From Vermamoeba vermiformis (lineage: Eukaryota): a stretch of 64,000 bases of DNA. The position numbers and the translations under genes were made by a program. The stretch is taken from NCBI GenBank assembly GCA_045837725.1, contig JBEWZL010000127.1, forward strand, positions 124,001 through 188,000, read 5' to 3'. Below the pieces are notes generated by a model, which was given only the letters and a program-made list of their open reading frames with translations, did no database searches and was not told where the DNA came from. Of this stretch, positions 1 to 53,605 are shown piece by piece; position 1 is the first letter of the stretch, and the number at the start of each line of letters is the position of its first letter.

Positions 1-1442
1 ACTACTGCTGGTACGTTAGTGCCACGCCATTCGTGTCAGAGTAAGTACAATTGCACAGCTAGATTAGTCATTATGCCTGGCCACTAATTATTGTTGCACA
101 GTCGGTTGTTCGATTCTGTGAAGATTTTTTTGGGCATTTGGCCTCCCGACTTCAAACTTCAAACAACTCTCGCTGATCTATACGAGCAGTAAGTATATAT
201 ATATACATTTACCATATTTCTCACGGTTCACTTTGTCGCTAGTTACGTGGAGATGGATTTGATCATGAAACATCTCGTTTGGCGCAACACCAAGGAGAGT
301 ATTCAAGACGAATATAACGTGCCTGATTATGAAGAGGAAGTCGTGTGGGTCGATTGTCATCCAATTGAAACCAAGTTCTATCAGCGTAACAGTACGACGA
401 CTGATCGATCGACAACATTAGTGTCTTTAACAAAGTTCTAACTAAGATTCATCAGGCATCAATTGGCGAGATGGCCCTCGTTATTTAAATATACCGTTGG
501 ATAGTTACAAAGACGATGAAATCTACCATTTGAAGGCAAGTCCGAGGTTTTCAGTTCAAAATATTTAATAATGTTTCGCAACGGCAGAGATACTACCCCC
601 ATAAAACGAAGGAATTGGAAGCATGGTACTCTGTGGTGCGTAATTAATTATAGGTTATCGCTTTGATTTTGACACCTGTCATTTTTTTTGCAGCCGTACG
701 TTCTGAGCTGCACGAACATAGCGTACAAAGAATTGAAAGTGCTAAACGAATATGGCAGTAAATATGCAAAGATATTAGCTTGGTTGGAAGAGCGAATCGA
801 AGAAGATGAATCCAACCGATTTTTGTTCTTTTCAACGGTACGAAAACTCCTCTCGACAATGACTCTAATTGAATTATTTTGACTAGGAAAACACATCGCT
901 TTGGCTATTAGGGCAAATGTTGACTGAAAATGGCATTTCTTACTCAAAATTTGACGGGTAATGTGGTGAAATTACGTAAAAATATGCTGACGCTTTCAAG
1001 CAATGTGACCCAAAAGGCTAAAGGCCTGAAGCAGTTCAAAGAAGATAACGTCAAAGTGATGCTGCTGAGTCTCGTCAAGTCAGCGTCAGGACTGAACTTG
1101 ATCGAAGCCAATTACATCGTGTTGATGGATCCCATGATAGGTTCGGTCGAAGAGTCACGTGCATATGAACTGCAAGCATTGGGCAGAGCTCATCGTCAAG
1201 GACAAGATCAGACCGTACGTTTAGTTAGATTTGTGCTGAAAAACACATTCGAAGAAGAGCTTTACAACCGCAACAAATCCAACGGCAGAGGTAAAATAAT
1301 ATCACATAGCAAACGTGTTATTAAGATGTTCGATCAAGATTCAGAGGATCAAAAGGCTACATTACAACGCAGTGGCAGTTCCCTTCAGTTGTGGGCTAGA
1401 TCGTCGAGTGCTGCGTCGTTGCGTCAAATGATGGAAAAATAA
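1..1442 (+). CDS. SNF2-family (Rad5/Rad16-like) helicase/ATPase, 3' part; 5' end lies outside the window
   Basis: Helicase C-terminal motifs VMLLSLVKSASGLNLIEANYIVLMDP and QALGRAHRQGQDQTVRLVRFVLKNTFEE; upstream exons carry LVWRNTK...VPDYEEEVVWVD and YGSKYAKILAWL; GT-AG introns between them. Confidence 0.85.
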
Positions 1443-8482: not shown

Positions 8483-11400
8483 TTAAAACAACTTGGCCTT
8501 CTTCTTTGCCTCAAGTTGTTTCCATTGCGGCAGTTTGTAGAATTCATCACGCTTCATCTTGAACACGGATTCGAAGCTCTCGTCGGACAAATAGGCCTAT
8601 AGGGATTAAATAAATTAGCATATGACCTTATTATACCCGTGTACTATAATAGCATACCTCAAGTTTCTTGACGTCAGCACCTTCAGGCTTCGTCACAAGT
8701 TGTTCGTAAGTGAACGATCCAGGTGTCACATCCGTTGGTGGGCCACGAGGAGTGCTAACAGGCGTGGTCTGTTTTTGAGCAGCAGAGCTCTTGGCCTGAG
8801 CAGCCTCACGCTCTGTCTTCTCTCGCGCCAAGCGGTCTTGTTCCTCGCGTTGACGCTTTTCTGCGGCCTCACGCTCAGACTTTTCGCGAGCCAATCGTTC
8901 TTGTTCTTGTTTCTCAGCTTGCTCACGAGCCAATCTCTCTTGCTCTTCACGTGTCAGCCTGCTCACGCGCTAACCGCTCTTGCTCTTCTTTTTCTGCTTT
9001 TTCTCGTGCCAATCGTTCTTGTTCCTCACGGTCAGCTTGTTCACGGGCCAATCTTTCTTGTTCTTGCTTCTCAGCCTGCTCTCGCGCTAATCGTTCTTGC
9101 TCTTCACGTTCAGCTTGTTCACGGGCCAAACGCTCTTGTTCTTCACGCTCGGCTTGCTCGCGCGCTAATCTTTCTTGTTCCTCACGCTCGGCCTGTTCAC
9201 GAGCCAGTCTATCGCGCTCTTCTTGTTCGGCCTTCTCGCGCGCAAGACGTTCTTGTTCCTCACGCTCAGCCTGTTCACGAGCCAATCTCTCTTGCTCTTC
9301 GGCTTGTTCACGAGCCAATCGTTCTTGCTCTTGCTTCTCAGCCTGTTCTCGCGCCAACCTTTCCTGTTCCGCTTTTTCTTGTTGCTGAAGTCGAGAGAGC
9401 TCGTCAGCTTGTACGAGGTCATCTTCGCCAGACTTCTCTTCGGACACCTCATAAACATCGTAGGCCGATGTGCGCTCTTGCACTGTGTCTTTGTAAGTGT
9501 CGTAGCCAGAGGGCGCTTCTTCGATGCCTTTGAAGCGATCGTCTTGATAACGGCCAACCTTGTCATCAGCCTCATCTTCCATACCGACGTATCGGTTATC
9601 GGGAGGTGGAACAGACTGGCTTTCGTTGTTGGTGTTGGAGTTGTTGGTGTTCGGCTTAGCAGCGTCCAATCCTTTGGAGTATTCTACATACGAGTCATCT
9701 TCGTAGCCCTTAAGCTCACGAGTCTCACCGGGCTTGTGATCATCGGTCGAATTGTTCAGATTTGAATCCACACTCGCGTTCAGAGCTTCGACGTACATGC
9801 CTACAACAACTCGTGAGCAAACAATTTCTGTCATCTCCGTCACTTTGCGTCTGGTTACCTTTAGCAGGGCTCGAAGACATTGGCACTACTGCGCTGCTCA
9901 GCGTGCTGTAACCACGCAAAGGCATGTCAGTGGATCTGTTGTTCGGGTTATCTTCTTCGACGTCGTCAGTACGCTCATAAGCTTGATAACTGCCGCCATC
10001 TAACATTAAAATGTCAGCACCTGTACGCCTACAATTCATCAAGTTGACAACTTACCTTCGGGTTCTTCCTCGCTCAATTCATGTTCACTGGCAGAGTCCT
10101 CAGGATGGTTCTCCAAATACCCGTTCTAATCAATTGTTAGACATGACGATCTGAGCACGTTTAAAGATTTCCATGGCACGTACCAAGTTCGAGGCGTAAT
10201 CCTTGAGACCGAGCATGTTCTTCACGGCACTCGAATCAATTCTCAAAGGAACAAGAGCGAAGCCCTTCTCGAAGAACAACTCTTCCAAGAACGTGTCAAT
10301 GGGCACTGCGTCTTCTTTTTTGATGCTAGTGTCCTTCTTGATGATCGACAAGAACGGGTCCTTGGCCCACCAACTACACAATGGTTAGACATGCATATTA
10401 ACTAATATGTATAATGCGAGTTATATATATGGTAGCTATAATTACCTTGGATTGTTAGTAATGTGGGCAATGTAACCGTCAACGTTGTAACTGAAGGCCA
10501 TGTAGCTCGGGTTAGTTCTGCTGAATCGCATCATAATGTGCTTGGGATATTTCTTCAACAAGTCCTCGGATTGCAATCGATTAATAAGCCCGCCAAATCC
10601 TTTGCCGAGCACGTATTTTTTGAAATTAGCCATGAAACGAGGATAAGGACCGAACAACGCCGTCAATAAATGCCACCTAAAATTATATTGTTAAGCCTCA
10701 TATAGTAATATAATATTTTTAGTATTGTCGTACTTGTAAGTGGTGACAATATTGTCCTTCGGGAAGTTCAAGAAATAGCCCAAATAATAAACGAGATCTT
10801 TGTTCTTGCATTCTTTGCCATAATCTTGCTCGAAGACTTTAGCGTAGAAGCTCTGAATAAAATAAAATTAATTAAATAGATTATATTGATTTAAATAACG
10901 CACATCAAAGGTACAGCAGTACGCCTTCGGTCCGATTCTAGACTCCCAAATCTTTCTGGCCTATTAATTTAGTTAATATCGGTACATAAAATATATTCGA
11001 ATCCGTTAATGCATACTTCATGATCGGTGATGACAAGAGAAGGGTGGTCTTTGACATCCGCTTCCGAACCTTTTTTGGATTCCGTTAACGGAAACATTAT
11101 GGTGATTTGGACCAAATATCTATTATTAAAATATTAGCTTTATATTTAAATTATTTACAAGCCGCTGTAAGCGCTTAAAGTTTGAAATTCACAAGCGTTA
11201 CTTAAAATTGTAATTTACTATCGAAATTAAATCAAATAGCTTTATAGGGTTATTTACCTTCGTAATGTCTGATCGAAAATTTCGAAGTTTTCTGTCATTT
11301 GGCGCTTCTCTTCGTAGATGTCCATAGCCATCTCCAAAGTCTCTTGCAACTGATCGATCATAAGAACCATCAATAACACGTATTCCTTGCGCGCATAATT

Positions 11401-22711: not shown

Positions 22712-24476
22712 TTACTGCTTATTCTCTTGGATCTGCTTCTTTTCTTCGATCTTTTGCAGCACCCAATCTTTAACCTAAATATCAAAGAAGTGTTTAATAC
22801 CATATAAAATCGTGTCTTAAAGTTAGGTTCACGCAAATTGAAGCAAAGTAATTTTGAGTGATTTCAGCGACTTACTTTGTCTTCCATTTCCTGTGCAAAT
22901 TGATTCGCTTCTTCACCGGATAATACGGGGTTATTGTAATACGCAATGTTGCCGAAACTTTTCAAGAATTTTGGCTGCAACATGAGTTGAAGCGGGTTGT
23001 TCATATAAAAGTCAATTTCTTCTTGTGTCACCTAATCACCCAATTAATTTAACCGTATAAAATAATTATAATAAATATTTCATATCGGTAATTTGTAAAA
23101 TAAGCACAAATTAGAAAAAAAATTTTGTACGGCAAATTTGGACTTACGTCAGTGGGCTTTTTCTTGTTCAAATAATATTGAATGACAGTGCGCATTTTTT
23201 CGGGCGTTACAATCATGTCCGCAACAGCGAGTAAATACTGCTCAGTGTGGCCCCAATGTTTCGTCAATTTAAGCTTTTCAGATCCCAAGTGCTGGAACCA
23301 AAAATTGACAGCAATGGCGGGCTCCGTGGTAGTCACGTGATGCCACCACAATTTGGGAATAAATAGCATTTCTCCGGGGTTCACCTCGATCTCCAAGTAC
23401 TTTGCGTTTTTGAACTCGGGATATTTTTCCAAATCGGGGTTATCAATGTCGATAATTGATTGGTGGAATTTTCCCCAATGTCTTTTCCTTTTAAAGCACT
23501 TTTCGTTCGTGTACGGATCGAACAATTTGAATATTTTCTTGCCCAAGATCATCGCGTGAAGTCCGTCCATGCCGTGATCACCTGATGACCAGTCGTGGTG
23601 CAGTGGTGTCACTTGGCCTATTGGTCGCAATTGCGTTAAAATTTCGTGGAATTAACGATCAACATGAAAAAGATCTAAAACGACAGATCTAGCTCCAAAT
23701 TATAATATTATTGCTCTTAACTTATAACATTATAGATAAGAATAATACGTATAATAAAGTACCTCTGTTTCCTATCCACAAGTTGCCAGGTTTGTTCTGT
23801 TCAGCGGCGTGTGGCGGTGGAATAACGTCGTTAATGAGCGCGGGAAAATTAGGACTGACTGGAATGCTTGCGAGGTAATAGAAGGGAGAGTCTGCCGTTT
23901 GGACCTTATCTGGGTCTGTATAGGATTATATGAGCTTACTATTGAAATCATACGAAGTGGAATAATGAACAGATCCGCGCGTCACGTACTGTTTTTGAGT
24001 TCGAGCCAATGGCCCATGAACTGCTTGAATGGAATCTTTATAGACTTCCCAAGCCACTCAGTATTGTCGTCGTTATAGTCGCGTTTGAAGTCTGTTCGAA
24101 GATTGACTAGCGTTTCTGGACCGATCTAAAAGCAGATCCGAGAAAATTAGCAAAAATTAAATTACGTTATTTTTATGACGACCCATATATTACAATTTGT
24201 TATTTAATAATATTTTGATAACGTTTAACGTGAAAAATTATTGATTCAGGTTGAAATTTACCTTTTCGATTAAATAATTCGGATCCAGCCATTTTTTCAT
24301 CGCTGGCCAATCATCAACAAGACCTGTAACGATGACAGGGCGACTATAATGAAATTAGAAATTATTTTCGTATTTTTAGAATAATTTTGGCGTTACCTCT
24401 CGCTGATGTACTTGTCGAGCTGATCCCGCGTTGGTTTATGAATTCGTTCAACGATAGTTTCAGTATCTAGCGACAT
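22712..24476 (-). CDS. JmjC/cupin-like 2-oxoglutarate Fe(II) oxygenase (KDM8/HSPBAP1/TYW5-like small JmjC)
   Basis: RPVIVTGLVDDWPAMKKW, PPYYLAS, NLWIG, TPLHHD (HxD), GKKIFKLF, VNPGEMLFIPKLWWHHV, IAVNFWF. Confidence 0.92.
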
Positions 24477-25316: not shown

Positions 25317-25916
25317 TCCGGGAAACGTAGATTTGCAAAGCCTTCCATCTTTGGATTAAAAATACAATTTCACCGCCAAACAGCAAGGCATCCAAGCCAA
25401 ATAACGAGATAGCCAGTCTACCTTCAAGAGTGCGCAAGCTAGCTGGGAACAAGTAAGCCAGAACGAAGGCCTCTCCGATGTCTCGAAGGATCGGCGCTAG
25501 GCAAACTAAATTAAAGTCCGTTAAACTACAAATTTATCCAAGTCATGGTTAAAGTTTGCCAATATCAACATTAAAGAGTTGGTCGGGTTAGCTTACGGAT
25601 CGCGGCAATGGCAGGTACAAATTTTCGGACGTCTGCATAAGTGCTAAACCAGCCAAGTATCGCTCCTGCAATGGCCACGGCTTCTACCGGATAGTACATA
25701 ATATTTTCTGTGTCTTGATTAGCGAAGCATATTATGGCAAGGTAAACCAATAAGATGATAGTATAATATTTCAAGTCCTTTGGATTTGGGAGCGTCAGAA
25801 TAGCTTTCAAGAGTATTATTTTGCTTCATTATGCTGGTTATTGGTGTTGCAGTTGATACTGCGAATGCTATTCGAAGTACAAACAAAGGAAGTTCTTCGG
25901 CAGTTTCGGATCCATA
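25317..25916 (-). CDS. Hypothetical multi-pass membrane protein
   Basis: Hydrophobic segments YYTIILLVYLAIICF, AVAIAGAILGWF and LAISLFGLDALLFGGEIVFLI over two exons; 5' part needs indel correction. Confidence 0.4.
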
Positions 25917-26098
25917 AAATTTGGCTATAACATAAAATTATTGTCTTCGCTGAGAATCCCACAGATGCCCGTAAATATGATAAGAGCTAGTAACCGAAAT
26001 CTATTTAATTGTGAATCAAAAGGCCCAAAAGGTTTTTGTCTGATCGAAATTCGGTCAAGTATACAGTTGAAGCTTTGCGAACGCAATAGATCGTCAAT

Positions 26099-29000
26099 AT
26101 GGAGCAAATAGATCTTATCGATGATATTTGGTTGCAAGTTTTCAATTATTTTGGACTTGATCGAGCTCGTCTTGCCATTGTAAGCAGAGAATATTCCTCT
26201 AGAAGCTGCATTCGCTAATTACGTAATTTATATTTATACGTCATACGTCATTATATATCTACTTTTATCAATCTACTTTTTCAATAATATTTATTAGAAA
26301 AATATTATTTTATTTTTTCTGGATGCATGACACTTCCTTCAGCTTATAAATAATGGGTTTCGGCTTTATTGCAATTTAATTGGTAAAAATTTTTAGGTAT
26401 GCAAGCGATGGGCAGCAGTGATTCTACATCCGCGTCATTGGCGCACTTTTGAAGCTGATTTCTCTGAGCAGAAAAAGAGGATTTGGCGATCGACGCATTC
26501 CAACTGACGGAATAGAGCCTTTCATTGCCAAGTATTGCACGAATCTGGTCGATTGTCATTTGACCAGCTGAGGGCTTTCGTAGCGTTCCTTCTTTGTTCA
26601 ACATGCTGCTTCAAATCAAAACTTTGCGACGGCTGGCAATATGCACGGAATCTTCAGGCTTTGGCAGATCGCAAATAGCTATTGAAGCCTCTCAACTCGT
26701 GGAGCCACAGTGCAAAGACTTAGTATTGCTCCACTTGAAGTCCGTGATCCTAAAACCTGATGCCTTACAAGCATTGTTACTTGTACGTACTAGTATTCTC
26801 GTAATATATTATCCGTATATACTAACGAATCGCAGGACTTGCCCAATCTCGAGGAGCTGTACCTCAGTCAGCCTATTGTGTCTGCCGAAGTTTTCGAACC
26901 AGCACAAAAGTTGCGACAATTGTCGTTTAACAATGACATTTTGGCAAGTATTGCAGAAGTGCAGCGGTTATCAGAAATGTTACTGAGCTTGCGGTATGTG
27001 GTCTACCCACCACAAAGAGTGTTTGGCAGTCCTACCCCAGACAATATTACAACGGTGGGCAACGTTACTTTGATCCCAATCACAGCATTGCAAAGCAGCG
27101 ATATGTCAAAGCTGCAACAACTCGGCACTTTCATATCACCAGCAAATCAACCACAGTTTTTGCTCAGAGCGCTTGAGAGTAGACGAAGCAAAGAGTATAT
27201 TCGTTACTTGGTCACCGAGCGGAAATACGATGTCAATTATACGTAAGTTACGCGTGCATCACTCTGCCTTAAGAGCTAACGTTGTTGTGTAGGAAAAAAG
27301 GCAAATTTTTTTACACGGTGGAGGCACCAGTCTATCAGGTTCGAATAGTTATAGAGGCAAGTGCGTTGTCTAACTCTTTGTAGATATACCCGCTGCAAGC
27401 AGCAGTGGGTGGTTTGCAAAACCTGCTCAAGTCAAACCAACCAACGGTCAACGATTACCTCGATGTTGTTGAAGAGCTGTTGAAGCTCGGTGCTGATCCG
27501 AACTCTCCTTTCTCGTACGATTCGCCTTTAGCTTCCTGCACTGACGCAGATACGTTCTTGATGCTACTGAAGTACGGCGCAGATCCAAACAAGTTGGTCG
27601 CCGGACAACCTGCTGCATGGTCCATTTTCAACAACAAATTTTTGGGTACGTTAGAGCTGCGTTACTGGTCGAATTGTAAACTAAACGTGTTTTGTAGAGC
27701 CCGAACGCGTTCTGCAAGAGCTCATTGGCGTGATGGATGTCAACGCGAAGTACGGTCCGGAGGAATATACAATGCTGATGGTATGCTAGTATCTATATAT
27801 TGAACAAAAACTGTTATATTAATTAATTTGTTTGATAGAACGCGGTAAATGAGCGTCATGGCCGATCTTCGCTGGTAAATATGCTGCTCGAGGCGGGAGC
27901 ACAATGGACACCTCGTGCATTGAATACTTTACATCACAGTATGCCCGAGTTAGTAAGTTGTTAGTATACTGTGTTTGAATTGCATTGTGTAATGAACTTC
28001 ATTTCAGTTTGAAGACTTCGTTCACAAGGGGAAGGCGGATTTATCATTGCTCAAGACGCCAAATGTATTCAAATCGTTGGAGCGAGGCATGTTGGCAGCA
28101 TTGTAAGTCCATTACAAGTTTTGATGAGCTACAATGACATCTAACCGATTATTTATTTTAGCCGCGATCATTTGAAGACACTAACGAGCGACGAAGAAGA
28201 GCCAAAGTTATCTCCGATGCATTATGCTGCATTAACGTTGATTCAAGAAACTGAATGTGGACAAGATTTGCATCCACGTGAACGCGAGAAGTTTGCAAAG
28301 CGATGGAGTGTCGCCGAAGAAGCAGCTTTACTCTTCGAGCCCTCTTTAACTAGGAAGGCAGAAAAAGATAAAAAACGGCGTCACATCGGAAAGCATTTGG
28401 CATCCCAGAAACAAGATGATGCACCGATCCAAGCGAACACAAATACTGGTGGCTTTGGTAGTACTCAGGCGCCAACACCGCTAGGTACGCCATCGACCTT
28501 TGGTGCATCAACGACATCGGGATTTGGTACGCCATCGACTTTTGGTGCATCAACAACATCGGGATTTGGTACACCATCTACCTTTGGTACATCAACGACA
28601 TCGGGATTTGGTTCAACTACAACGAAGTCAAGCCTTGAACCAAAGCCATTCTTTGGTTCTTCGGCGACAAGCAGTTCAATGGGTGGTCCTGCACCGACCC
28701 AAGCGAATACAAATACAGGTGGTTTTGGTACTAGTCAGGCGTCGACACCAGTTGGTACGTCATCGACCTTTGGTGCATCAACGACATCAGGATTTGGTAC
28801 ACCATCGACCTTTGGTACATCATCGACCTTTGGCACATCAACGACATCGGGATTTGGTTCTACAACGACGGGCTCAAGCCTTGAACCAAAGCCATTCTTT
28901 GGTTCTTCGACAACAAACAGTTCAATGGGTGCAAATAACTCACCTTCACCAAACGTTGGTACTACTACCACGTCCTTACGCTTTGGTTGGCGCCAACTTG

Positions 29001-31542
29001 GTCCTGCACCGACCCAAGCGAATACAAATACAGGTGGTTTTGGTACTAGTCAGGCGCCGACACCAGTTGGTACGTCATCGACCTTTGGTGCGCCAACAAC
29101 ATCAGGATTTGGTACACCATCGACCTTTGGCACATCAACGACATCGGGATTTGGTTCAACGACGACCTTTGGTGCATCAACAACATCGGGATTAGGTATA
29201 CCATCAACCTTTGTTCGTCCTCGTTACGTAACTTCAAAGCTTGAGTCTATTGACGAAGTTATTCCGCTGTTGAACTGCAGCATCAACGAAAAGACAAGCG
29301 ACGGTGCCACACCATTGTTGTTGTTGTGCATGTCAGTGTCGCACAGCAGTGAGGCTAAAGTCAAGAACACAACATCACTGATCAAGCACGGTGCAAACGT
29401 CAACCTCGCGGTAAGGAGGGATAATGTTTATTTGTTACAATGCTGATTCGAGTCATACAGGACAAACACGGGTGGACACCTCTTCATGCAGCACTGTACG
29501 TTGGAGACTGGTCTTTGGCTTCACTGCTGCTCGAACACGGAGCTGACATCAATGCACAAGACATGAAAGGCATCACACCACTGATGGCACTGATTTACGG
29601 CTTCAGACACATCGAGCAACTTGGTTTTGACGACTTCGAATCAGAGTGGTCCAAACTGATCACTTCGTTCAATGTTGACTTGTCATTGGTCGATCGATCG
29701 TTCAATCGTTCTTTGGTGCATTTGATGGCTGCTGTTGGATCGCCAGCAATGTTCGAGTGTGTTGAAGAAAAACTTCAAGGACTGGATTTGGTGAATGCAA
29801 AGTACGTGCTCTCATAAACCAACACGCACTAACATATTTGAAAGGGATATTGAAGGCTTCACACCACTTCACTACGCAGTGATGTTCGACAACATCGAAA
29901 CAGTGCATTATCTTCTGGATCATGGCGCTGATGCGAATGCACAAACAACTTCGCTGAAACTAACGCGTACGTTCTACTGTCCCTATTGACCTTCTACTTT
30001 ACTGATTTAAATGCTGATAGCCGCGATGGTGTTGTGCAACATTGTACCAACAGAAATTAACGCTTATCTCGCTCATTACAACACGTTGCTTTTGGGTCAA
30101 TTCTCGACGCATCTTCTGGCTGCAGACTATGACAGAAAACAAATTCAGCCACCATGGGTCCGTTCAGCGCCAAGGGACTTTATGTAGGTATCTTTTGCGG
30201 CCGTCACAACTTTAACAATTGGCGCAGGGAAAAAGAGAAAATGCTCAACTTTGACACAATGATGAAGGCACTTGTACTGCAGTCAAATCCAGCAGTACTT
30301 GATGATGACGGCAATACAATCTTGCACCACTTAGTAGGCTTGATAGAACATCTGATGGCGTGTTCAGTCTCCAATCCAAGTTCTGTTGCAACGAATGTAC
30401 TCGAAGTAATTCGAACGACCAATGCATTTAAATCATACTGGACCAAACCAAACTTCAAGAATCGAACCCCAGCCAATAGGTATGTCCCACAATAGTCAAA
30501 CTCAACTAACGGTATTTTTTCAAAGATTTATTTGTGGCATTTGTTCGCTTGGAGGCAATGCTCTTAAGTGGCGAATGGAGTAAGTGGTGATTTGATATTG
30601 CAAGCATTGCCTAAATTGTGGTTGTTAGGATACTTCAGATAATCAAAGAACAAGAGATCGATTTGAATCACGAAGGAACACACGCTTCAGCCCAATTGCT
30701 TCTTTCTAGTTTGCCACCCAGCTTGAAACTTGAGTTGCTGGCTCTAATAGGTAAAGCCATTAGTATTGAAGAAACTGATGTTATGGCACTAACCTTGATT
30801 AAGATCATTCACAAACCAATTATGTAAGCCAAGTGCTTGAGCCACGCAAGGGCAATCCGCTCTTCGATTTGCTTCAAAATGCAGCTTATGATGTTGCATT
30901 GGTCAAGACAGTACTCCTTGCATACCCAAATGCTATTAATGGCACTGATCAAACTGGAGCCACACCGTTAATCTTTTATGTTGTTGGTGTAAGTTGTTAT
31001 AGTTGGGTTTAATATATATATTAACTTCTATCATATCAGCTACTGCAAAGAGGATCGTTTATTGCTAGCGTAAGTGCTCTTAATATTGAATATTGCTTCA
31101 ACTCATGGCTTGTTTTTAGTTACATGAAATTCTTCCTGTGATTGATGTTTTGTTGGCAACTCAAGGTATGATTTCAAGTGTTTGTAATGGCATGCTAGTG
31201 TGCTAATGTTTTGTTTTGTTAGGTGTCGATCTGGATGCACAAGATCAAGATGGAAACACAGCACTTCATTACGCCTGCAAGTACTTCCACACTGGATTTA
31301 TTGATGCCATTGATGCCAACTTGAACATTGTGGGCTTAGCAGTAACATATTGCTTGTTTGCTTTCAAGTTGGTTGAAGCAGGAGCACGAACAGATCTCAA
31401 AAACAAGCGAGGTCAAACACCTCTTGATTATGCACCCAAGCTGATGGAGCACTATGAAAAGGTGTATCCTATTGTTAAGGCTGTGAAGCTTAAGGAAGAG
31501 CAAAAGCCACTTTACAAGAAAGAAGGAAAACATGGTTGGTGA
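26099..31542 (+). CDS. F-box / LRR-like / ankyrin-repeat protein, paralog A, with FG-repeat insertion
   Basis: MEQIDLIDDIWLQVFNYF...VCKRW (F-box); PNLEELYL and LRQLSF (LRR-like); ankyrin repeats LLKLGADPN, GWTPLHAA...LLEHGADINAQD, GFTPLHYA, GNTALHYA, GQTPLDYA. Confidence 0.85.
28421..29210 (+). repeat. Hierarchical coding repeat of FG motifs (STFG/SGFG, 42-bp core unit; three higher-order units starting APxQANTNTGGFG)
   Basis: 22 FG dipeptides counted in an S/T/G-rich spacer; higher-order units start near 28421, 28691 and 29006. Confidence 0.9.
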
Positions 31543-31999
31543 ACCAAAAGGCGAAATTTGCAGATTTCAGATCTGAACTCACTGCAGTACCACAAACAAC
31601 GATATTATGAATTGTTTACTACATAGGCTTGGAGAGTGTAATAAAATATGCAAGAAAACAGCTTTATTTGTTGAAGGAGCTTTCAGATCCAAAGTACAGA
31701 CTGGATTCAATTCACTGACAACTAAAAAAATTCCTGCCCTCTCAATTAATAAGTATGTATTTTCAGTGTCACATAATGCACAAAAGCAACATATTTAATA
31801 AATTTCAGAACATATCAACTGCAATCTCTACACACATCACCACTCAGGTGTGCCAAAAAAAGCCTGGATGCAATGTCCTTAAAGCAGGTGCTTGCAGAGT
31901 TAGAATGGAATCGAGCTGAAGTGCGCAGATTAACTGCAAGCAGCGCACTGGAATCAAGAATGAAGAAAAAATAAAGAAACCATCAAGGAGCTGTTGCCC

Positions 32000-32840
32000 A
32001 ATCAGCCAAAAAATGGAACCATTGCTACGGCCACCTTCCCACCGACAGCTTTTTCCATGCGGGGTACGCGCGCACCATCAGAGTCGATGACAGCACTGCC
32101 GAGTCCGAGCTGTTCAGTGAGCCGTGCGATGCGTTCCACTCATATTGCGCAGTTTGAGGTTATTGGTACTGTGAAGAAATTGACAGGTGAGCAAATATCG
32201 CGTTGAGTAATATCACGCGACTAACCTTTTGGTTTCTTGTAGGCGAGCGTTTGATCATAAAGCGGTTCTGTCCCGCTTCCTCGTTGACTGGGGTCAACGC
32301 GATATCAATAGGCACTATCACCGCTGACCAGGAGGACACCTCGCTCAGCGACGATATCTGCAATCATGTTTTAGCGTACGAAAGAATACTATTGTGACTT
32401 ACGCAGCGAGGTTGTTCGCAAGGACTCGTGCAGATAGTGTTGGAGTCATCGGACTGTTCCGGGGATCCGGTGCCACTGCTGAATCGATTGAAGTACACGT
32501 GGCTAATTACAAGTATGAGCACTAATATAATATCTTATTTACTTACATCTCCTTAACGTTGACTAAGCTGTGCAAAAGCGGCACTTGACCCGTGAACGCG
32601 ATGTTGACGAGGGTCCTACACGGGTTAGAAATCATCATTAAGGGTGCCTTCTATATACTTACAAGTACTCGAGAGGACGCATTAAACACAATGCTGATGG
32701 TAATGTTCTGACTAAATAGTTGTCCGAAAGATCACTGCCAAGCACGAGGTCAGAGACGGATCTTTAATGAATTCCTAACGTTGAACCCGCATTCCCTTCG
32801 CACGCTGCAACTGAATAACGTTCTTGGACTCTCGTTCATG
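32000..32840 (-). pseudogene. Degenerate intron-containing gene fragment between the two F-box/ankyrin paralogs
   Basis: GC-richer exon-like blocks bounded by GTAAGT/GTTAGT donors and AG acceptors, but no continuous frame and no recognisable family. Confidence 0.3.
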
Positions 32841-33503
32841 GTATTCCACCGAGATAAATACTACGTAATACGAAAGTGAGCGGGTGGCATCAAAACATGC
32901 ATTGCACGCGAAAGAAAATTCAATGCAAAGGTCCGTTTTTATCATTAATAAATATTATATTAATGTAATATAATTTTGTTACACGTTGAATTTCAAGCAT
33001 TAATCAAATTCTGATCAGATGTCAGATCGGGCGTTTGCTTCAATAAACGATATTTAATTAAACTAACGTACCTAATAATATTTGTTGATTAATGCTGCAA
33101 CCGTTGTAGAGCTGATGCAAGTCCCATCCGTAAGAGAAACGAATTTTACTAATCACCGTGGATTCAAGTTGATAAATGGCCTAAAATATAAATAAATGAG
33201 TCTTAATAATCCCCTGCCGCATAATCACGGCAAAACACGACTTCAAATCAAGGCAGATCTGCCACTTATTTCGTCGATCTCGCCAATAAGCGATAACATA
33301 AACTCACCATATTCCGTGCACTCTTACCACTAACTGATACGGATGCATTTAAAATACAAGCAATGCCCGAAATCTTACTTTTTTCTAAGGCACGTGCTTC
33401 TGCCTAGGCAGGCGAATTTGCTTCTCCGGTTGCGCGCCATTTTTACGGGTTGTGTCGTTAATGCACTGTGCAATACGTGGTCATAATGCAATAGATCGTC
33501 AAT

Positions 33504-36500
33504 ATGGAGGAAATAGATCTTATTGATGATATTTGGTTGCAAGTTTTCAATTATTTTGGAGTTGATCGCGCTCGTCTTGCCATCGTAAGCAGAGAAGCAA
33601 AAAGATTTATTATCTTCGTTAATTGCCTTGATTTTATTTATTGAACAACTGACATCTCCTTTCGGCAAGGATGATTGATTGAGTCAAATTTTAGATCGAA
33701 ACTGAATTCTTATTTACTGCTCTGTTGTTTTAATTAAATATTGACGGATTTGTAATTTAATATAAATTTATCAGGTGTGCAAGCGTTGGGCCGACGTTAT
33801 TTTGCATCCACTGAATTGGCGAACTTTTGAAGCGGATTTCCAGCTTAGAAAAAGGACTTTTGCGTTCAAAAATTCAAAAGAGAAGAACTATAATATCGAG
33901 CCTTTCATTGCTAAGTACTGCACAAATTTGGTCGATTGCTATTTGACGATCGAGAGCAGATCTCGTAACGTTAACTCGTTGCTCAATGTGTTATTTCAAA
34001 TCAAGACTTTGCGACGACTGGTGCTGCGCGTATCGTTCGTGGAGCCAGTAAAGGTCATTGATGTCACCGTACTAAAGACAACACCAAACCAAGCCTCGCC
34101 GGTGCGTGAGGATCCACTGCTCGTGCCACAGTGCAAAGACATGGTATTGCTCAATTTGAGTGTACATCAACTCGAGACGGAAGGTTTACAAACCTTATTG
34201 AGCGTAAGTCGCTGCATTAGCTTGCCTTTCGAACATTAATTAACGAACATAATGCTTACGTAGGGCTTGCCTAATCTTGAAGACCTTTACTTGGACTTGA
34301 AGGCCACGCTCAACTCCGTCGAATTGTTCGCTCCAGTACAAAAGTTGAAGTTGTTGACCTTAAGTAACGGTGCTTTGTCCAATTTGGCTGAACTGCGGAG
34401 GTTATCGGAGTTACTACCAAACCTTCGGTACGTGGTTTACGAAGGCACTAAAAACTTTTGGGCACCGAACTCGCAAGACGCGCTTGAGCCTTTGACGGTG
34501 GGAAATCTTACTATTGTTCCGACTGCGGTCTTGGAAAAAGGCGATCTGGCTTCGCTCAAACGACTAGGCAAATTCGTTTCACCAGCGAACCAACCCTTGT
34601 TGTTGCTCAGAGCACTTAATTACAGACACAACAAAGAGGTTATACGTTACTTGATTACCGAATGCCACTTTGACGTCAACTTTGTGTATGTTTTCAGTTC
34701 GTTTGTTTGCTAACGGTGCATCAGGAAACACGAGTTCTCGTACAATACTTCCGAATTAAGCTTTCGTGGCTTAGAAGAAAAATATCCACTGCACGCGGCA
34801 TTGGCTTCAAAAGCATTCATGATGGGTCGATCCGTGGCGGTCACCGATTACCTCGATGTCGTCGAAGAACTGTTGAAGCTTGGTGCTGATCCGAACTCTC
34901 CGTTAGCGAGCAGTTCTCCTCTAGTACATTGTGGGGAAGCAGCTTCGTTCTTGCTGTTGCTGAAGTACGGCGCAAATCCGAACAAGATAGTCAACGGATA
35001 TCCTGCTGCGTGGTCCATCTTCCTTCTTTCCTCAGGTACTGCATTATTTATGCTATTGTATTAGCAGCTTACATTTTACAGGCACTGAGGAAGCACTGAA
35101 AGGTTTAATTGGCGTGTGCGATGTAAACGCCGTACACGGAGCTGAAAGCGCGACGATGCTTCTGGTAAGATTAATCTTCTCGTGTAACGTTATTTATGCT
35201 AATTAATGAAAAAAGAGGGCAATATTTAATCGAAGCAGAGATAGACAGGCAGTGGTGGATTTATTGCTCGAGGCGGGAGCACAATGGACGCCACTTGCCT
35301 TGAATTCTTTACGTCAATCTATGCCTCAATTGGTAAGTTGTTAGTGACGAAAGTTCTGTCACAGTAGCTAATACAATTTATTCCCAGTTTGAGGACGTTG
35401 TTCGCAACCGGAAGGCAGACTTGTCGATGCTTGAGACTACGGTCATCTTTGAATCGATAGAACAAGGCTCGTTAGAGTTGTTGTAAGTCGAGTTCAATCA
35501 CTGTTTGTTACAACAGTCATGCTCAATCATTTTTAATAGCCGCGATCATTTGAAGACACTAACGGCGGACGAAAAGGAGCCAAAGCTGTCCCCGATGCAC
35601 TACGCTGCGTTAATAATGACTAATGGGGCTGAAAGTGGACAAGATTTACAGCCTAACAGGAAAGGCACGTCTGACATTTTTCGGTGGAGATTAACCACGC
35701 TACTATCTGGCGACACTCAAGTGCCTCGTCGCATTGGAAAAAAGCTGGACAATAATAATAAGCAGGGTTCTACGCAGAGGTCAAGCTCGAATGCTCTTTC
35801 GTTTCCTTCATCAATGTTTGGCGCGACAACCACAACACCAATGTTTAATTTTGGTTCCACTGCAACAAATTCTGGCGCATTATTTGGCGGTGCGATGAAC
35901 AACTTTTCGGCAGGAAACAAGGGATCAACGTCAAAGCTTGAGTCTATTGACGAAGTTATTCCGCTGTTGAACTGCAGCATCAACGAAAAGACAAGCGACG
36001 GTGCCACACCATTGCTGTTGTTGTGCATGTCTTTGTCACACAGCAGCGAGGCCAAAGTCAAGAACGCAACATCACTGATCAAGCACGGTGCAAATGTCAA
36101 TCTTGCGGTAAGAGTTGATGAAGTTATTGTTATTGCAATACTGATTCGAGTCATACAGGACAAATACGGGTGGACACCTCTTCATGCAGCACTGTACGCT
36201 GGAGACTGGTCTTTGGCTTCACTGCTGCTCGAACACGGAGCTGACATCAATGCACAAGACATGAAAGGCATCACACCACTGATGGCACTGATTTACGGCT
36301 TCAGACACATCGAGCAACTTGGTTTTGACAACTTCGAATCAGAGTGGTCCAAACTGATCACTTCGTTCAACGTTGACTTGTCATTGGTCGATCGATCGTT
36401 CAATCGCTCTTTGGTTCATTTGATGGCTGCTGTTGGATCGCCAGCAATGTTCGAGTGCGCCGAGCAAACGTTTTTGAAAGCAGAGTTAATTAATGCGAGG

Positions 36501-38154
36501 TAAGCAGGCTCAGTTAGTGAGTTGTTGAGCTAACGTATTTGAAAGGGATATTGAAGGCTTCACACCACTTCACTACGCAGTGATGTTCGACAACATCGAA
36601 ACAGTGCAATATCTTCTGGATCATGGTGCTAATGCCAACGCACAAACAATTTCGCTGAAGATAACACGTACGTTGCCATATAATTATAAGCAGTAGTTAG
36701 TTTTGCTAACAAACTCTAATATATTAGCTGCAATGATGTTGTGCAATATGGTTGAACCAACGACAACGAGCAACAACTCTTATCTCACTCGTTACAACAC
36801 ATTACTTATGGCGAAATTCTTACGAAGTAGCATCGGCCAGATAGGATCGTTCAACAAATCTTTTATTTCACCGCCTTGGAATCGACCGAACATATTTTTT
36901 GGTGACCACATGTACGCGCTATTTTTGAGCTCTGTTGTGAACCGTTAGTTATTAACGTTAAATTAGTACCGAAGAGAGGATTTTAAACTTTAACACAATG
37001 CTGAAAGTTCTCGTCATGCCCTCAAATCCTGCGATAATTGATGACGATGGCAACACTATCGTGCATCACTTGGTAGACTTGCTTCAACCATACAGTGAGT
37101 TGGTGCCACGTTGTTCGGTTATTTTTGACTTGCTGCAAACAGTCAAATCATTTAAACCTCACTGGAATGCAAAGAACTTCAAGAATGAAACGCCAGCGAA
37201 CAAGTAAGTCCAAAAGTTAAACATTTATTAACTTAATGCCAATAATTCTAACTATCGTTTAGATTAATTCACTATGTTTGCAGCGCAGATTCACTCAGCC
37301 TCCTTCCATACTGCGAACGGTATGAAATTTCCTTTTTATTCAATAAGTTACATTACGCTAAACCGTACTTAAAGCGCGATTGAGTTGATAAGAGAACAAA
37401 GCATTGATATTGCACACGAAGGAGTCCTTGACGCATTTGAGCAACTGTTGTGTCATAAAGTCATACCAGCGGAACTAAAACTAAAGTTCATGAGCCTCAT
37501 TGGTAAGCTCTCGTACTGCATTAAATGACCGAAGCCTAATTGCCATGAAAAGATTTGTCGCGCTTGCGATAATGTGAGGCACACTCGCACTGTGATAAAG
37601 AAGAGCAATCCACTCTTCGCGGCACTGCAAGGCCAACATTCCGGTGCACTAATTAAGGCAATAATAGAGGCTTATCCGAGCATTATAAACGATACTAATG
37701 AAGATGGAGCAACGCCGTTAGTGGCTTATGTGAAACAAGGTGTAAGTTTAATTGAGTCTTTTGTACGAATTTAGATCTGACAAAAACTTTTAGGTGCAAT
37801 TTACCGCTGCGTTGGATGCATTATTCGAAGCTTCAGGTATGCGAGAATACAATACTTTGAAATATTAAAGAGTCCCTCTAATGTTCGTTTTTAGGTGTCG
37901 ATCTGAACGCACAAGATCAAGACGGAAACACAGCACTTCATTATGCATGCAAGTACTTCCACATTGGATTTATTGACGCCGTTGATGCCATTGAATGCCT
38001 ACGGTCCAGCTTGTTTGCTTTCAAGTTGGTTGAAGCAGGAGCACGAACAGATCTCAAAAACAAGCGAGGTCAAACACCTCTCGATTACTCACCCAAGCTG
38101 TTGGAACACTATGAAAAGGTGTATCCTATAGTCAAGCAGTTTGGAATCAAATGA
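33504..38154 (+). CDS. F-box / LRR-like / ankyrin-repeat protein, paralog B
   Basis: MEEIDLIDDIWLQVFNYF...VCKRW; same exon order as paralog A; near-identical central ankyrin exons; short insert with 3 FG motifs. Confidence 0.85.
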
Positions 38155-38259
38155 GGTCGTAGAACGGCGGCCAACTTTTTGCGCGCATTTTTAAAAATTT
38201 GCTATTTTAGTTTATTACGCTGATTGATGCATCACAATACCATAAACAAATTTAAAGAC

Positions 38260-41102
38260 ATGTCCAAAAGAAAATTAGACCCAAAGAACTCGTTTGAAGA
38301 TGCAGAGATAAAGCGTAGAAGAATTGACTACGATCTTGACGATCTACCAGATGAGGTGCTGGTATGCATTCTAAATTTATTGGTGACGTCTATTGAAGGT
38401 AAAGCATATTTAAAAGGATATATTGCTATTTATTAAGTATTTTGGTGAATTATGATTTCAATTCTTTAGATCGAGATCTAATTCTTATTGCGACCAGCGA
38501 AATTGACTTGCCGAAAATGGTCCGAAATTATACGGTCTTACCATCGTACAACATGCTTCCAGCGCTGGCAAGGCGATATCGAATATGACATTTCTCACTT
38601 TGACACAACAAGCGCAGAAAGAAAAGAAGAGCTGCTCGAGAGGTATTTTATTCCTGTTTCGCTCTGTTGTGAAGGTAGGTCACTTAATATTATTTTAATT
38701 CTTTATTTATTCTCATGTCATTCCAGTTCCGTGCGTCGATTGGAGGCGGTACTATTTGATGCGGTAATTGTAACGTTTTAATTTAAAATGAAATTAAGTT
38801 ATAATTATTTGCCTAAATAGGTCAAACTACGAGCAATTACTGAAATTTCTCGGTTTGTCGATAACTTCGGAGTTGATATCTGACCGAATTGCAGAGGCCA
38901 TGCACAGCCTTAAAAAACCGTTGGACACCCCAGAAAAGTCATTATGTGCTGCATATTTCTTCTGCGATGCCGGAAGCATCGATTTGGAGCGAAAAAAGTC
39001 ACCGTTTTTGGACTCGTGGAACTACTGTGCAAAATTGTGGCACGTTAAAGACCGAAAAGGCAACACAAAGTAATTGCGTAACAAATTTGATATGAAAAAT
39101 ACTTACTGTTATATGACCTAGGATATGCCGGCTACTACTGAAATTGTATCACCTGGCCAAATTGAGACATGCCAAACAAGAAATACAACAAGCGGTGCTA
39201 TCAACATTAACGGAATGCTTCATAAAATCTTCTTTTGACGTTGAAATCTGTCGCGAGCTATTGAAAGCAGACGGGTTCATTTCACGTTGCTCCGTAAGTG
39301 ACCGCCACGCTTTTAGACTTTCTAACAAATCTCACGCCTCTCAGATCAAGGGTTGGAAAAACATTTTTTGGTATCCCTTGCAAGACGTTTTATGGGGCTC
39401 AGACCTGTTCAATACAATCTGCCGTGCCACAAAAGATCTTTTCGAAGAATTTGATCTTCAGAAAAAGCTTTCTCTGTTGGACATCCGTGTTCCCGACGAT
39501 TACAAAGAACGGTACAACGATGCCATGCAAAGGTAAGGACCACAATTCGAATCATATTTCCGTTCTAAAATTATCTTTGCAGCTTGGTCATCGATTACTT
39601 AGAACACAATGGCAACCACGAGATTTTGTTCGTTGATTGGCTGACTGACATTTTGAATCTTGAAGAAAGTCGAGACGAGGCTTATTCGACCTACTTGAAT
39701 ATAGTACTCAAAGAAAGTAACTTGGACTATTTCTATGACGCCACAAAGTACGGTACTCTTACCGATGGCATAATAAGTACTAACCAGATTCGGCAGGCAG
39801 AAACTATTAGCAAATTTGGTAATGAATTTAACGGAATCGAGAGTCAGTTTGCTCTCCGACTATCATCTAAAAGCTCTGCCAAGTCTGTTAAAATGCTCAA
39901 AGATTGCCGATCCGAAACGATTCTGCAAGAATTTGACGCTGCTACGCACTCGCCTTGATCCAGTACGTTGACGGTAGTAGTTTTTATGGACTTTCAATCT
40001 AACACTTTGTTGCAGTATTTGCCTTTGTACACCGATTTTTTCATGAACGACAGCTACTTGATGGCGAAACCTTTTTTCGAGTCAACTCTTTCGAGTTATC
40101 CTGCTGAAGCTATTAAGGTCATTCTGAACTTGACACCGTGCAATGCAAACATCACCAAGATGATAGCAGATGAATTTGAGTTGATTCAACGGAGTTTTGG
40201 TGATCGTTGGGAAGAGTTAAAAAACGAATTTGTGCAAAAAGTCCTTGGATTATTCCCGGAACAACTCCGCGACATCAAATTGGCATTGCCGACGAATGAA
40301 AACCTATCGAAAGAAGCAACGACAGTGCTCGCATTGCCTGCCATGGTATTCAACCAGACGCAATTAGGCGTGTTGAATCGTTTATTGCTTGTGGCTTGCG
40401 AACACACATTATCGGAGGACAATCAACGGCAATTGCTCAATTTGACCCTGGCACACGTCAAAGCGTTCCCCCACTTGACATTCACCGTTTGGTTGCCATT
40501 TTTGGAAAATTTTACTGCAGAGACGCTGCCGTATCACGTAGCGTTAATGATATTATTACCTGATGCAATGATGGCAGACCAATTCGCTCCGTGGATTGAA
40601 AATTTTGTCATCTCGTTGATAGTTACGTATCCTGAAACTGCACTCGAATGTATCCAACAGTTTGCACGAGGACGATTATCAATAGTCACGTGCGCACATA
40701 TTGTGTGCTTCTATGGCATTAGAGCCTTCAAAGAGACGTGTCTTCACGGCACCAATTATGCAACTGAAGTTAAAAGTAAGGCCTTAACCCGGGTTTTTTT
40801 ATTGCATGTATCGTTCTAATTATATTCATACAGCATTATTAGACGAAGCCCTATTGTACTTGGTTAATTCAGCACCCCGCACCTCCTATGACGTTGTGAA
40901 CTTGATGTGTATTTTGTTAGCGTGCTCGATGGTACATCCGCGCATTGAAGAGTTCACATGTCACAAACACGATTGGATAGTCGTTAGAGGCGCCCTGGCC
41001 CATACTCTAGTCCAGGATATACTGGGTGTTGATTTTGTAAATAATATTTTGAACAGCGGAATCGGGTTTATCGACATGATCCCTTATTTCAAGAATAAAT
41101 AA
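38260..41102 (+). CDS. F-box protein with basic N-terminal NLS-like segment and helical C-terminal region
   Basis: MSKRK...IKRRRIDYDLDDLPDEVL...LTCRKWSEII; long helical exons stay in frame after splicing. Confidence 0.7.

Positions 41103-51454: not shown

Positions 51455-53605
<2,151 letters not shown>

Follow-up and report, generated by a model that had tools for sequence, protein, structure and literature searches.

An FG-repeat loop within the ankyrin region of a predicted F-box protein of Vermamoeba vermiformis

Introduction

Phenylalanine-glycine (FG) domains have been studied mostly as parts of the nuclear pore, and Vermamoeba-type amoebae are known above all for hosting giant viruses and Legionella. 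What, then, might a tract of 22 FG motifs be doing in a gene for an F-box and ankyrin protein of such an amoeba? The question is raised by a stretch of 64,000 nucleotides of Vermamoeba vermiformis DNA (GenBank assembly GCA_045837725.1, contig JBEWZL010000127.1, positions 124,001 to 188,000 of the forward strand), hereafter called the window. This eukaryotic sequence, with 40% G+C and no N, carries two related genes in tandem, which we call A and B. A preliminary description, made from the letters of the window alone, had proposed that a nucleoporin-like FG domain has expanded in copy A within an F-box/leucine-rich repeat (LRR)/ankyrin protein.

We report on the coding status, the repeat structure, the gene context and the relatives of this tract. 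The explanation that we consider most likely, although we hold it tentatively, is that the FG loop would be a functional multivalent tether, recruiting a substrate receptor of a Skp1-cullin-F-box (SCF) ubiquitin ligase to transport receptors or to an FG phase.

Results

An in-frame FG tract inside an ankyrin-encoding exon

Translation of positions 28421-29209 (+) yields 263 residues in a single frame with 22 FG dipeptides, i.e. one per 12.0 residues, found as 8 STFG, 7 SGFG, 3 GGFG, 2 PFFG, 1 LRFG and 1 TTFG motifs. The tract is composed mainly of Thr (66), Ser (50), Gly (46), Phe (24), Pro (23) and Ala (16), and its spacers are nearly uncharged, as initially described, with 7 charged residues in total (2.7% DEKR) and 14.1% FILVM. 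It is enclosed in a stop-to-stop open reading frame (ORF) of 433 codons, 28145-29446, which also harbours LSPMHYAAL upstream (28208-28234) and SKLESIDEVIPLL downstream (from 29234). The segment that follows the FG tract within the exon 9 ORF reads SKLESIDEVIPLLNCSINEKTSDGATPLL. The tract had been placed between these ankyrin segments; the common frame holds, but a charged segment of 62 residues precedes the first FG motif.

The whole linker of A comprises 337 residues, in which G comes next after F in 22 of 27 cases. None of 2000 composition-preserving shuffles of this linker attained 22 FG motifs, the shuffle mean being 3.9, and the flanking exons of gene A contain one FG in 422 residues and none in 359 residues, respectively. 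The densest window of A holds 17 FG per 200 residues, above the criterion of at least 5 per 200 residues given in PMC8311347. We found no candidate intron within the tract that combines a donor, a branch site and an acceptor. As judged from its sequence, the FG tract is coding, in frame in exon 9.

Repeat anatomy and constraint

The tract consists of 42-nucleotide (14-residue) units, which Tandem Repeats Finder reported as two arrays, one of 3.1 copies with 91% matches and one of 3.5 copies with 79%. Superimposed on them are three in-phase higher-order units, each opening with APxQANTNTGGFG and all with lengths that are multiples of 3. Unit 1 spans 28421-28690 (270 nucleotides, 90 residues), unit 2 spans 28691-29005 (315 nucleotides, 105 residues) and unit 3, which is truncated, spans 29006-29215 (210 nucleotides, 70 residues), all on the forward strand. 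Units 2 and 3 show 4 mismatches across their first 112 nucleotides, and unit 1 is more diverged. The tract of copy A has grown via slippage of the 14-residue sub-repeats and triplication of the ~90-residue unit.

Among the three units, the ratios of nonsynonymous to synonymous differences (pN/pS) are 0.31, 0.41 and 0.48 in the FG frame and range from 1.03 to 4.87 in the other two frames, these values being derived from small counts and non-independent pairs. Synonymous changes are thus favoured in the FG frame only, and therefore the differences between units arose under constraint on the protein encoded in that frame.

Gene A and its exon 2

We modelled gene A by hand on the basis of GT-AG sites, open frames and the paralog B, and the junctions of exon 3 were also matched to P0165, a full-length relative described below. 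All exons are on the forward strand. Exon 1 (26099-26179), with the ATG and the first half of the F-box (MEQIDLIDDIWLQVFNYFGLDRARLAI), shares 92.6% identity with exon 1 of B and aligns with residues 1-34 of P0165, inside the Pfam F-box match of the latter. Exon 2 (26397-26782) encodes the second half of the F-box (VCKRW...) and the beginning of an LRR-like region, which continues in exon 3 (26836-27242). Exons 1 and 2 of A are 65% and 68% identical, respectively, to the F-box residues of P0165. Exons 4-8 (27293-27338, 27384-27645, 27698-27780, 27839-27952 and 28008-28102) code for the first ankyrin region and are colinear with P0165. Exon 9 (28162-29410; 1249 nucleotides, 416 codons) encodes in succession an ankyrin helix 1, the charged segment, the FG tract, an ankyrin helix 2 and the next repeat. 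Its junction with exon 10 (...GANVNLA/DKHGW...) reads identically in the spliced homologues P0155 and P0165, which confirms this part of the model. The remaining exons (29461-29801, 29845-29966, 30021-30183, 30228-30479, 30526-30579 and 30629 onward) encode the second ankyrin region up to a TGA at 31540-31542, the junctions past 30629 being approximate. Of the 14 modelled introns (26180-30628), the first has 217 nucleotides and the 13 others 43-59; a YTRAY motif, mostly CTAAC, is found 7-35 nucleotides ahead of the acceptor in 11 of them, and two acceptors are AAG.

Joined together, exons 3-9 form 752 codons devoid of stops, and exons 10-13 are open as well. Pfam Ank (cutoff 21.1) is matched by exon 5 at 25.4 bits and by exon 10 at 42.6 bits, and the last exon also scores above threshold. 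The F-box/LRR/ankyrin assignment of the preliminary description thus stands for the ankyrin part in A itself and for the F-box in P0165, where it passes the Pfam cutoffs. The LRR part is weaker, as LRR_4 matches exon 3 of A at 17 bits, below the cutoff of 27, and no LRR match was obtained in exon 3 of B, nor in P0165 at E <= 0.01.

The F-box of A also presents a complication. According to tblastn and DNA alignments, the homology of exon 2 to B and P0165 passes through three frames, with shifts near 26463-26476 and at ~26566, i.e. two frame changes within about 100 nucleotides, and every frame is interrupted by a stop. In the assembly as it stands, the predicted F-box of A is out of frame with the FG/ankyrin body. 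A contig from DNA run X1, ~1-2% diverged from the window, has one base fewer at 26566 and by codon positions would join two of the frames; therefore, at least this one of the two shifts reflects an allelic variant or an error of assembly. Either the two indels of exon 2 stem from the assembly or from allelic variation, or they disabled the copy very recently. An additional intron that would bypass the shifts was considered and rejected, since upstream of the first stop (26505) only the GT donors at 26418 and 26434 are available, and their use would remove conserved F-box codons. No GT able to splice around that stop is present between 26435 and 26531.

A small family with FG motifs at the same site

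We searched for relatives among 5.8 billion proteins, using an exon 9 word-index search and a profile search with alignment of the matches, each scoring the 8000 candidates with most words in common. Eight related protein clusters were found, and all eight carry FG motifs in the linker, as do A and B. P0151 is an A-type exon 9 from a second assembly, 87% identical, with 19 FG motifs (at most 18 per 200 residues), and P0153 is of the B type, with 3. P0152 and P0154 (cluster member P0172) are genomic ORFs of a further organism with 5 FG motifs, P0156 (cluster member P0174) has 9, P0175 has 3 and P0176 has 4. P0155, with 5 FG motifs, is a transcript assembled with Trinity under the label Vermamoeba vermiformis; it is incomplete, with its 5' end inside the FG linker. 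Its residues 674-704 match a histone fold (Pfam Histone, E = 2.8e-9), and this end probably results from a chimeric or read-through transcript assembly. The predicted F-box/LRR-like/ankyrin family with an FG loop is small, lineage-restricted and rare.

An FG-bearing linker did not first arise in copy A, as all family members found have FG motifs at that site; the FG loop is therefore ancestral and variable in length, with A at the expanded end of a range from 3 to 22 motifs. For the same reason, we rejected capture of the tract from a nucleoporin gene. B, P0153, P0175 (3 FG each) and P0176 (4) lie under 5 FG per 200 residues. In 9 of 11 linker rows, the FG count was attained by at most 4 of 2000 shuffles, the exceptions being B (54) and P0153 (122). 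F precedes G in 5 of 9 cases in the linker of P0165 versus 5 of 47 elsewhere in that protein, and in 5 of 8 cases in the linker of P0155 versus 0 of 25 elsewhere.

Other F-box proteins with FG motifs, another point raised initially, do exist in the family. P0165 and P0168, cluster mates of P0152, are 1283 residues long, come from contigs of 6473 and 5117 nucleotides and possess the FG linker. They are colinear with A and B over all modelled introns and are therefore most likely RNA-assembled. P0165 matches Pfam F-box-like at 25.3 bits (cutoff 24.3) and F-box at 21.2 bits (cutoff 20.5) over residues 4-43, as well as Ank_2 at 118.3 bits. The predicted architecture, F-box, LRR-like region, ankyrin repeats and FG loop, is real in this family, and the FG-bearing exon is retained in the putative spliced transcripts of relatives (P0165, P0168 and P0155). 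For the window itself, three RNA runs bearing the same species label (X21-X23) placed no read on 25901-38500, a result with no bearing on whether A is expressed.

Copy A and P0151 agree in 361 of 413 aligned positions, and their flanks differ at 3 positions. The 39 gap positions correspond to four in-frame indels of 6, 6, 4 and 23 residues, all within the FG tract, and the 19 aligned FG motifs are untouched by substitution. Repeat length is thus polymorphic, as the preliminary description had suggested checking. Because the three-unit plan is common to both sequences, the triplication is older than their split, and the number of sub-repeats is still changing. A recent expansion had been proposed from the near-identical DNA units, but an array also found in the second assembly is not very recent.

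HMMER with the 320-residue ORF of B against 1.84 billion representatives gave 105353 matches, dominated by generic ankyrin proteins, P0017 being the sole close relative among the 150 matches listed, and an Atlas search with the entire exon 9 retrieved ankyrin clusters only. The word-index search with exon 9 among longer proteins (729-2080 residues) found nothing at E <= 0.001 in 7999 candidates. A metagenome scan yielded the loci L001 (50% identity) and L002 (27%), both matching in the ankyrin part alone, and a scan of viral contigs matched 230 pattern stretches, none of which was confirmed. The FG tract gave nothing meaningful against PDB sequences.

The tandem paralog B

Paralog B (33504-38154, +) has the same architecture as A, with an uninterrupted exon 2, for which no match was found among PDB sequences. 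Ank_2 is matched at 60.9 bits. Its linker, at the same site and in the same exon, has 106 residues (35613-35930) and exactly three FG motifs (MFG, FNFG and ALFG; core 35808-35888), and we detected no DNA similarity between it and the tract of A. The initial account of a shorter, dissimilar insert in B is therefore accurate.

The DNA identity of the two copies reaches 89.5% across 29230-29973 and 35927-36674, which comprise the 3' part of exon 9, intron 9 and exon 10, as against 70-79% in the other aligned exons. The types of exon 10 tail look exchanged in the other assembly: in P0153, a B-type linker is combined with an A-type tail (...EEKLQGLDLLNAK). The tail of P0017 is of the B type, and the longest contig listed for this protein has the same length, 6266 nucleotides, as the one listed for the A-type P0151. 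These comparisons suggest that A and B have undergone gene conversion or recombination with each other.

Position of the loop, predicted disorder and basic patch

LSPMHYAAL corresponds to the first helix of the interrupted ankyrin repeat; M19 is invariant in alignment A2, and the AlphaFold2 model of exon 9 has a helix at residues 18-28, around SPMHYAAL. The segment SKLESIDEVIPLLNCSINEKTSDGATPLLLLC...GANVNLA (29234-29410, +) contains the second helix and the next ankyrin repeat; conservation within the family is strong over this block. The linker precedes IDEVIPLLNCSINEKTSDGATPL; in P0165, profile positions 11-90 of Ank_2 begin at residue 665, and SIDEV starts at residue 666. From the Pfam coordinates and the ankyrin consensus, we infer that the loop sits between helix 1 (SPMHYAAL) and helix 2 (IDEVIPLL) of a single ankyrin repeat.

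The loop is bipartite, with a charged stretch that harbours a conserved basic patch followed by the uncharged, S/T/G/P-rich FG stretch. The charged part covers 28235-28420 (+), i.e. 62 residues or residues 25-86 of the exon, and the basic patch, KDKKRRHIGKH, is at 28364-28396; in alignment A1, R55 and G58 (numbered by the first sequence) do not vary. Counterparts of the patch are PRRIGKK in B (35724-35744) and PRRRLVG and HRRVGKQK in relatives. The patch could be a nuclear localisation signal, to judge from its composition. AlphaFold2 predicts no secondary structure over the FG tract, with predicted local distance difference test (pLDDT) values of 32-46 by block, and the FG loop is probably intrinsically disordered.

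Comparison with known FG and F-box systems

The FG domains of Nup98 have 2.5 +/- 0.4% charged residues, 13-17% FILVM and 36-58 FG motifs in 494-737 residues, in contrast with about 28% charged residues in typical disordered regions (PMC4283134). Human NUP98 and NUP214 have at most 19 FG per 200 residues, and a working threshold of 5 has been proposed (PMC8311347). The tract of A resembles the cohesive FG domains of Nup98 in its charge (2.7%), its FILVM content (14.1%) and its FG density, in its spacers rich in S, T, G, P, N and Q and in being predicted to be unstructured. It differs from them in its length, 263 residues against about 500-740, and in its location, as a loop within one ankyrin repeat of a predicted F-box protein. 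S/T-rich FG regions are also a trait of Nup62-type proteins. No pore-anchoring domain was found, as the exons of A and P0165 give only F-box, F-box-like, Ank and a weak LRR_4 match in Pfam. On paper, the tract is FG-domain-like by its bulk properties, yet the predicted protein falls outside the nucleoporin families.

A nucleoporin-density FG region fused to another core activity is also found in GLH-1, GLH-2, GLH-4, DDX-19 and RDE-12 (PMC8311347). In Caenorhabditis elegans, the FG repeats of GLH helicases are required for perinuclear P-granule localisation, and GLH-1 depends on its FG region for its perinuclear position (PMC8311347). Compared with this group, the partners of the FG region in the A family are F-box, LRR-like and ankyrin segments and not a DEAD-box helicase, the FG region is internal to a repeat domain, and the organism is an amoeba and not an animal. 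RanBP2/Nup358 combines FG repeats and a SUMO E3 in one polypeptide and is a bona fide pore component. The A protein would be like it in pairing FG motifs with an E3-type function, but it would be a substrate receptor of a cullin-RING ubiquitin ligase, without a known pore anchor. Amoebal F-box and ankyrin proteins and their mimics, such as Legionella AnkB, have an N-terminal F-box and then ankyrin repeats that presumably bind the substrate. Members of the A family are far longer (about 1280-1470 residues), carry an LRR-like region downstream of the F-box and possess an FG loop, which is not known from these other proteins.

Our literature search for F-box proteins with FG repeats found no report of such a protein, only incidental co-occurrences, the full list of 2,863 FG-rich Swiss-Prot proteins of PMC8311347 being outside its scope. 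Non-pore FG proteins are already known; none with an F-box or with ankyrin repeats was reported in the literature searched.

Alternative explanations

If the FG loop is a functional tether, its FG part would act as a cohesive nucleoporin FG domain, i.e. as a multivalent hydrophobic tether that binds nuclear transport receptors or partitions the protein into the FG phase at nuclear pores or in FG condensates. Substrates would be bound by the ankyrin array, the N-terminal F-box would provide the connection with an SCF ubiquitin ligase, and more FG motifs would mean stronger partitioning. In favour of this proposal are the coding status of the tract and the constraint on it, the presence of FG motifs throughout the family, the transcripts of relatives, the Nup98-like bulk properties, the lack of secondary structure in the AlphaFold2 model, the F-box of P0165 and the precedent of the GLH helicases. 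A number of observations weigh against it. Neither the FG tract at E <= 10 nor the whole exon 9 at E <= 0.1 matches any Pfam family, and a language-model search with the tract reached a Nucleoporin_FG cluster at 0.79, under the level that counts. The motifs of A are of the STFG and SGFG types, not GLFG or FxFG, and since the repeats are of common ancestry, 22 motifs do not amount to 22 independent observations. With 3 FG motifs in B and P0175, high valency is unnecessary for the family, and the FG count of B was attained in 54 of 2000 shuffles. The location of the loop between the two helices of one ankyrin repeat draws on Pfam profile coordinates and a general ankyrin consensus, the AlphaFold2 model is poor overall (mean pLDDT 43, alignment of 8 rows) and constitutes weak evidence for disorder, and the putative F-box of A is not in frame with the rest.

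The loop might instead be a translated, tolerated low-complexity spacer that makes the ankyrin array flexible between its two parts, or contain a short linear motif for a different partner, the expansion in A being near-neutral length drift, an account that we regard as possible though on the unlikely side. Composition and slippage would then maintain the FG-rich sequence, which would play no nucleoporin-like role. The wide range of FG counts among relatives and the length difference between the two assemblies of A speak for it, and the failure to match a nucleoporin FG profile, the presence of only 3 FG motifs in B, a copy with its frame intact, and the poor conservation of the sequence outside the FG motifs all agree with it. 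It accounts less well for the excess of F followed by G over shuffles and over the rest of the same proteins, which is seen in seven distinct linker types, and for pN/pS below 0.5 in the FG frame alone. Charge depletion and a hydrophobic fraction within the narrow range of cohesive FG domains also set the tract apart from typical disordered regions (~28% charged; PMC4283134). Less probable still, and unlikely in our view, is that copy A is a recently disabled pseudogene or yields a product devoid of the F-box, its FG array being unconstrained slippage and B carrying the family function. The two frame changes of exon 2, where no frame is open throughout, and the lack of a GT donor in 26435-26531 to skip the stop at 26505 speak for it. 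Yet the modelled exons downstream are all open, the FG units have low pN/pS values (0.31-0.48), the second assembly retains the exon 9 ORF with in-frame indels only, and the X1 contig is devoid of the extra base at 26566. B is undisrupted over an equal length, and the clustering of both indels in a single exon is compatible with a local error or with an event of very recent date.

Splicing out of the segment, or a chimeric assembly with a nucleoporin locus, had been named in the preliminary description as what would overturn its proposal. That the FG segment is an artefact of an unrecognised intron or of such a mis-join now seems highly improbable to us. GTACG-type donor-like strings do occur within the repeat, and the X1 contigs are short, with none shown spanning the tract among the 8 of 405 pieces listed. 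Nevertheless, a single ORF runs across both junctions of the tract and on into conserved ankyrin sequence, and the P0151 ORF of the second assembly combines the same flanks with the FG array, which makes a chimera unlikely. X1 covers all 30 bins, with no joint reported in 28421-29209, no combination of donor, branch site and acceptor was found in the tract, and the spliced transcripts of relatives have FG motifs at the same site.

Other features of the window

Just after B, an ORF at 38224-38433 (+) (...LDDLPDEVLVCILNLL...) resembles by eye the start of another F-box, and it matches no Pfam family at E <= 0.001. The long ORFs in 39117-40819 correspond to no Pfam family where tested. At 8947-9885 (-), a 312-residue ORF carries a long stretch of charged tandem repeats (...EQERLAREQAE...); the opposite strand and the remaining frames are likewise open, and no Pfam family was found. 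The window also contains ordinary exons of housekeeping type, namely a helicase C-terminal domain exon at 924-1442 (+), a Cupin_8/JmjC-type hydroxylase exon at 23049-23651 (-) and an enolase exon at 51571-52242 (-), with a best PDB E-value of 1e-79.

Significance

A bolder form of the tether proposal, to which we give little credence, is that amoebal SCF receptors with a true cohesive FG domain as a loop of their ankyrin array would dissolve into the pore barrier or FG condensates, in the manner of a partner of a transport receptor, and ubiquitinate transport receptors, stalled cargo or FG-binding particles of giant viruses or bacteria infecting such amoebae, with the repeat number tuned rapidly by slippage under host-parasite conflict.

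In the few known non-pore cases, of which the GLH helicases are an example, an FG tract can serve as an address label for the pore surface. The loop of A is short enough to be expressed and assayed directly and would make a cheap test case. If the loop is indeed a functional tether, it would link SCF-dependent degradation with FG phases, and the fast change in length of a conserved tract would provide a natural experiment on FG valency versus partitioning. The locus hints at a possible link between protein degradation and pore-type interactions in these amoebae, for which the sequence feature is well documented and the role is one that we infer.

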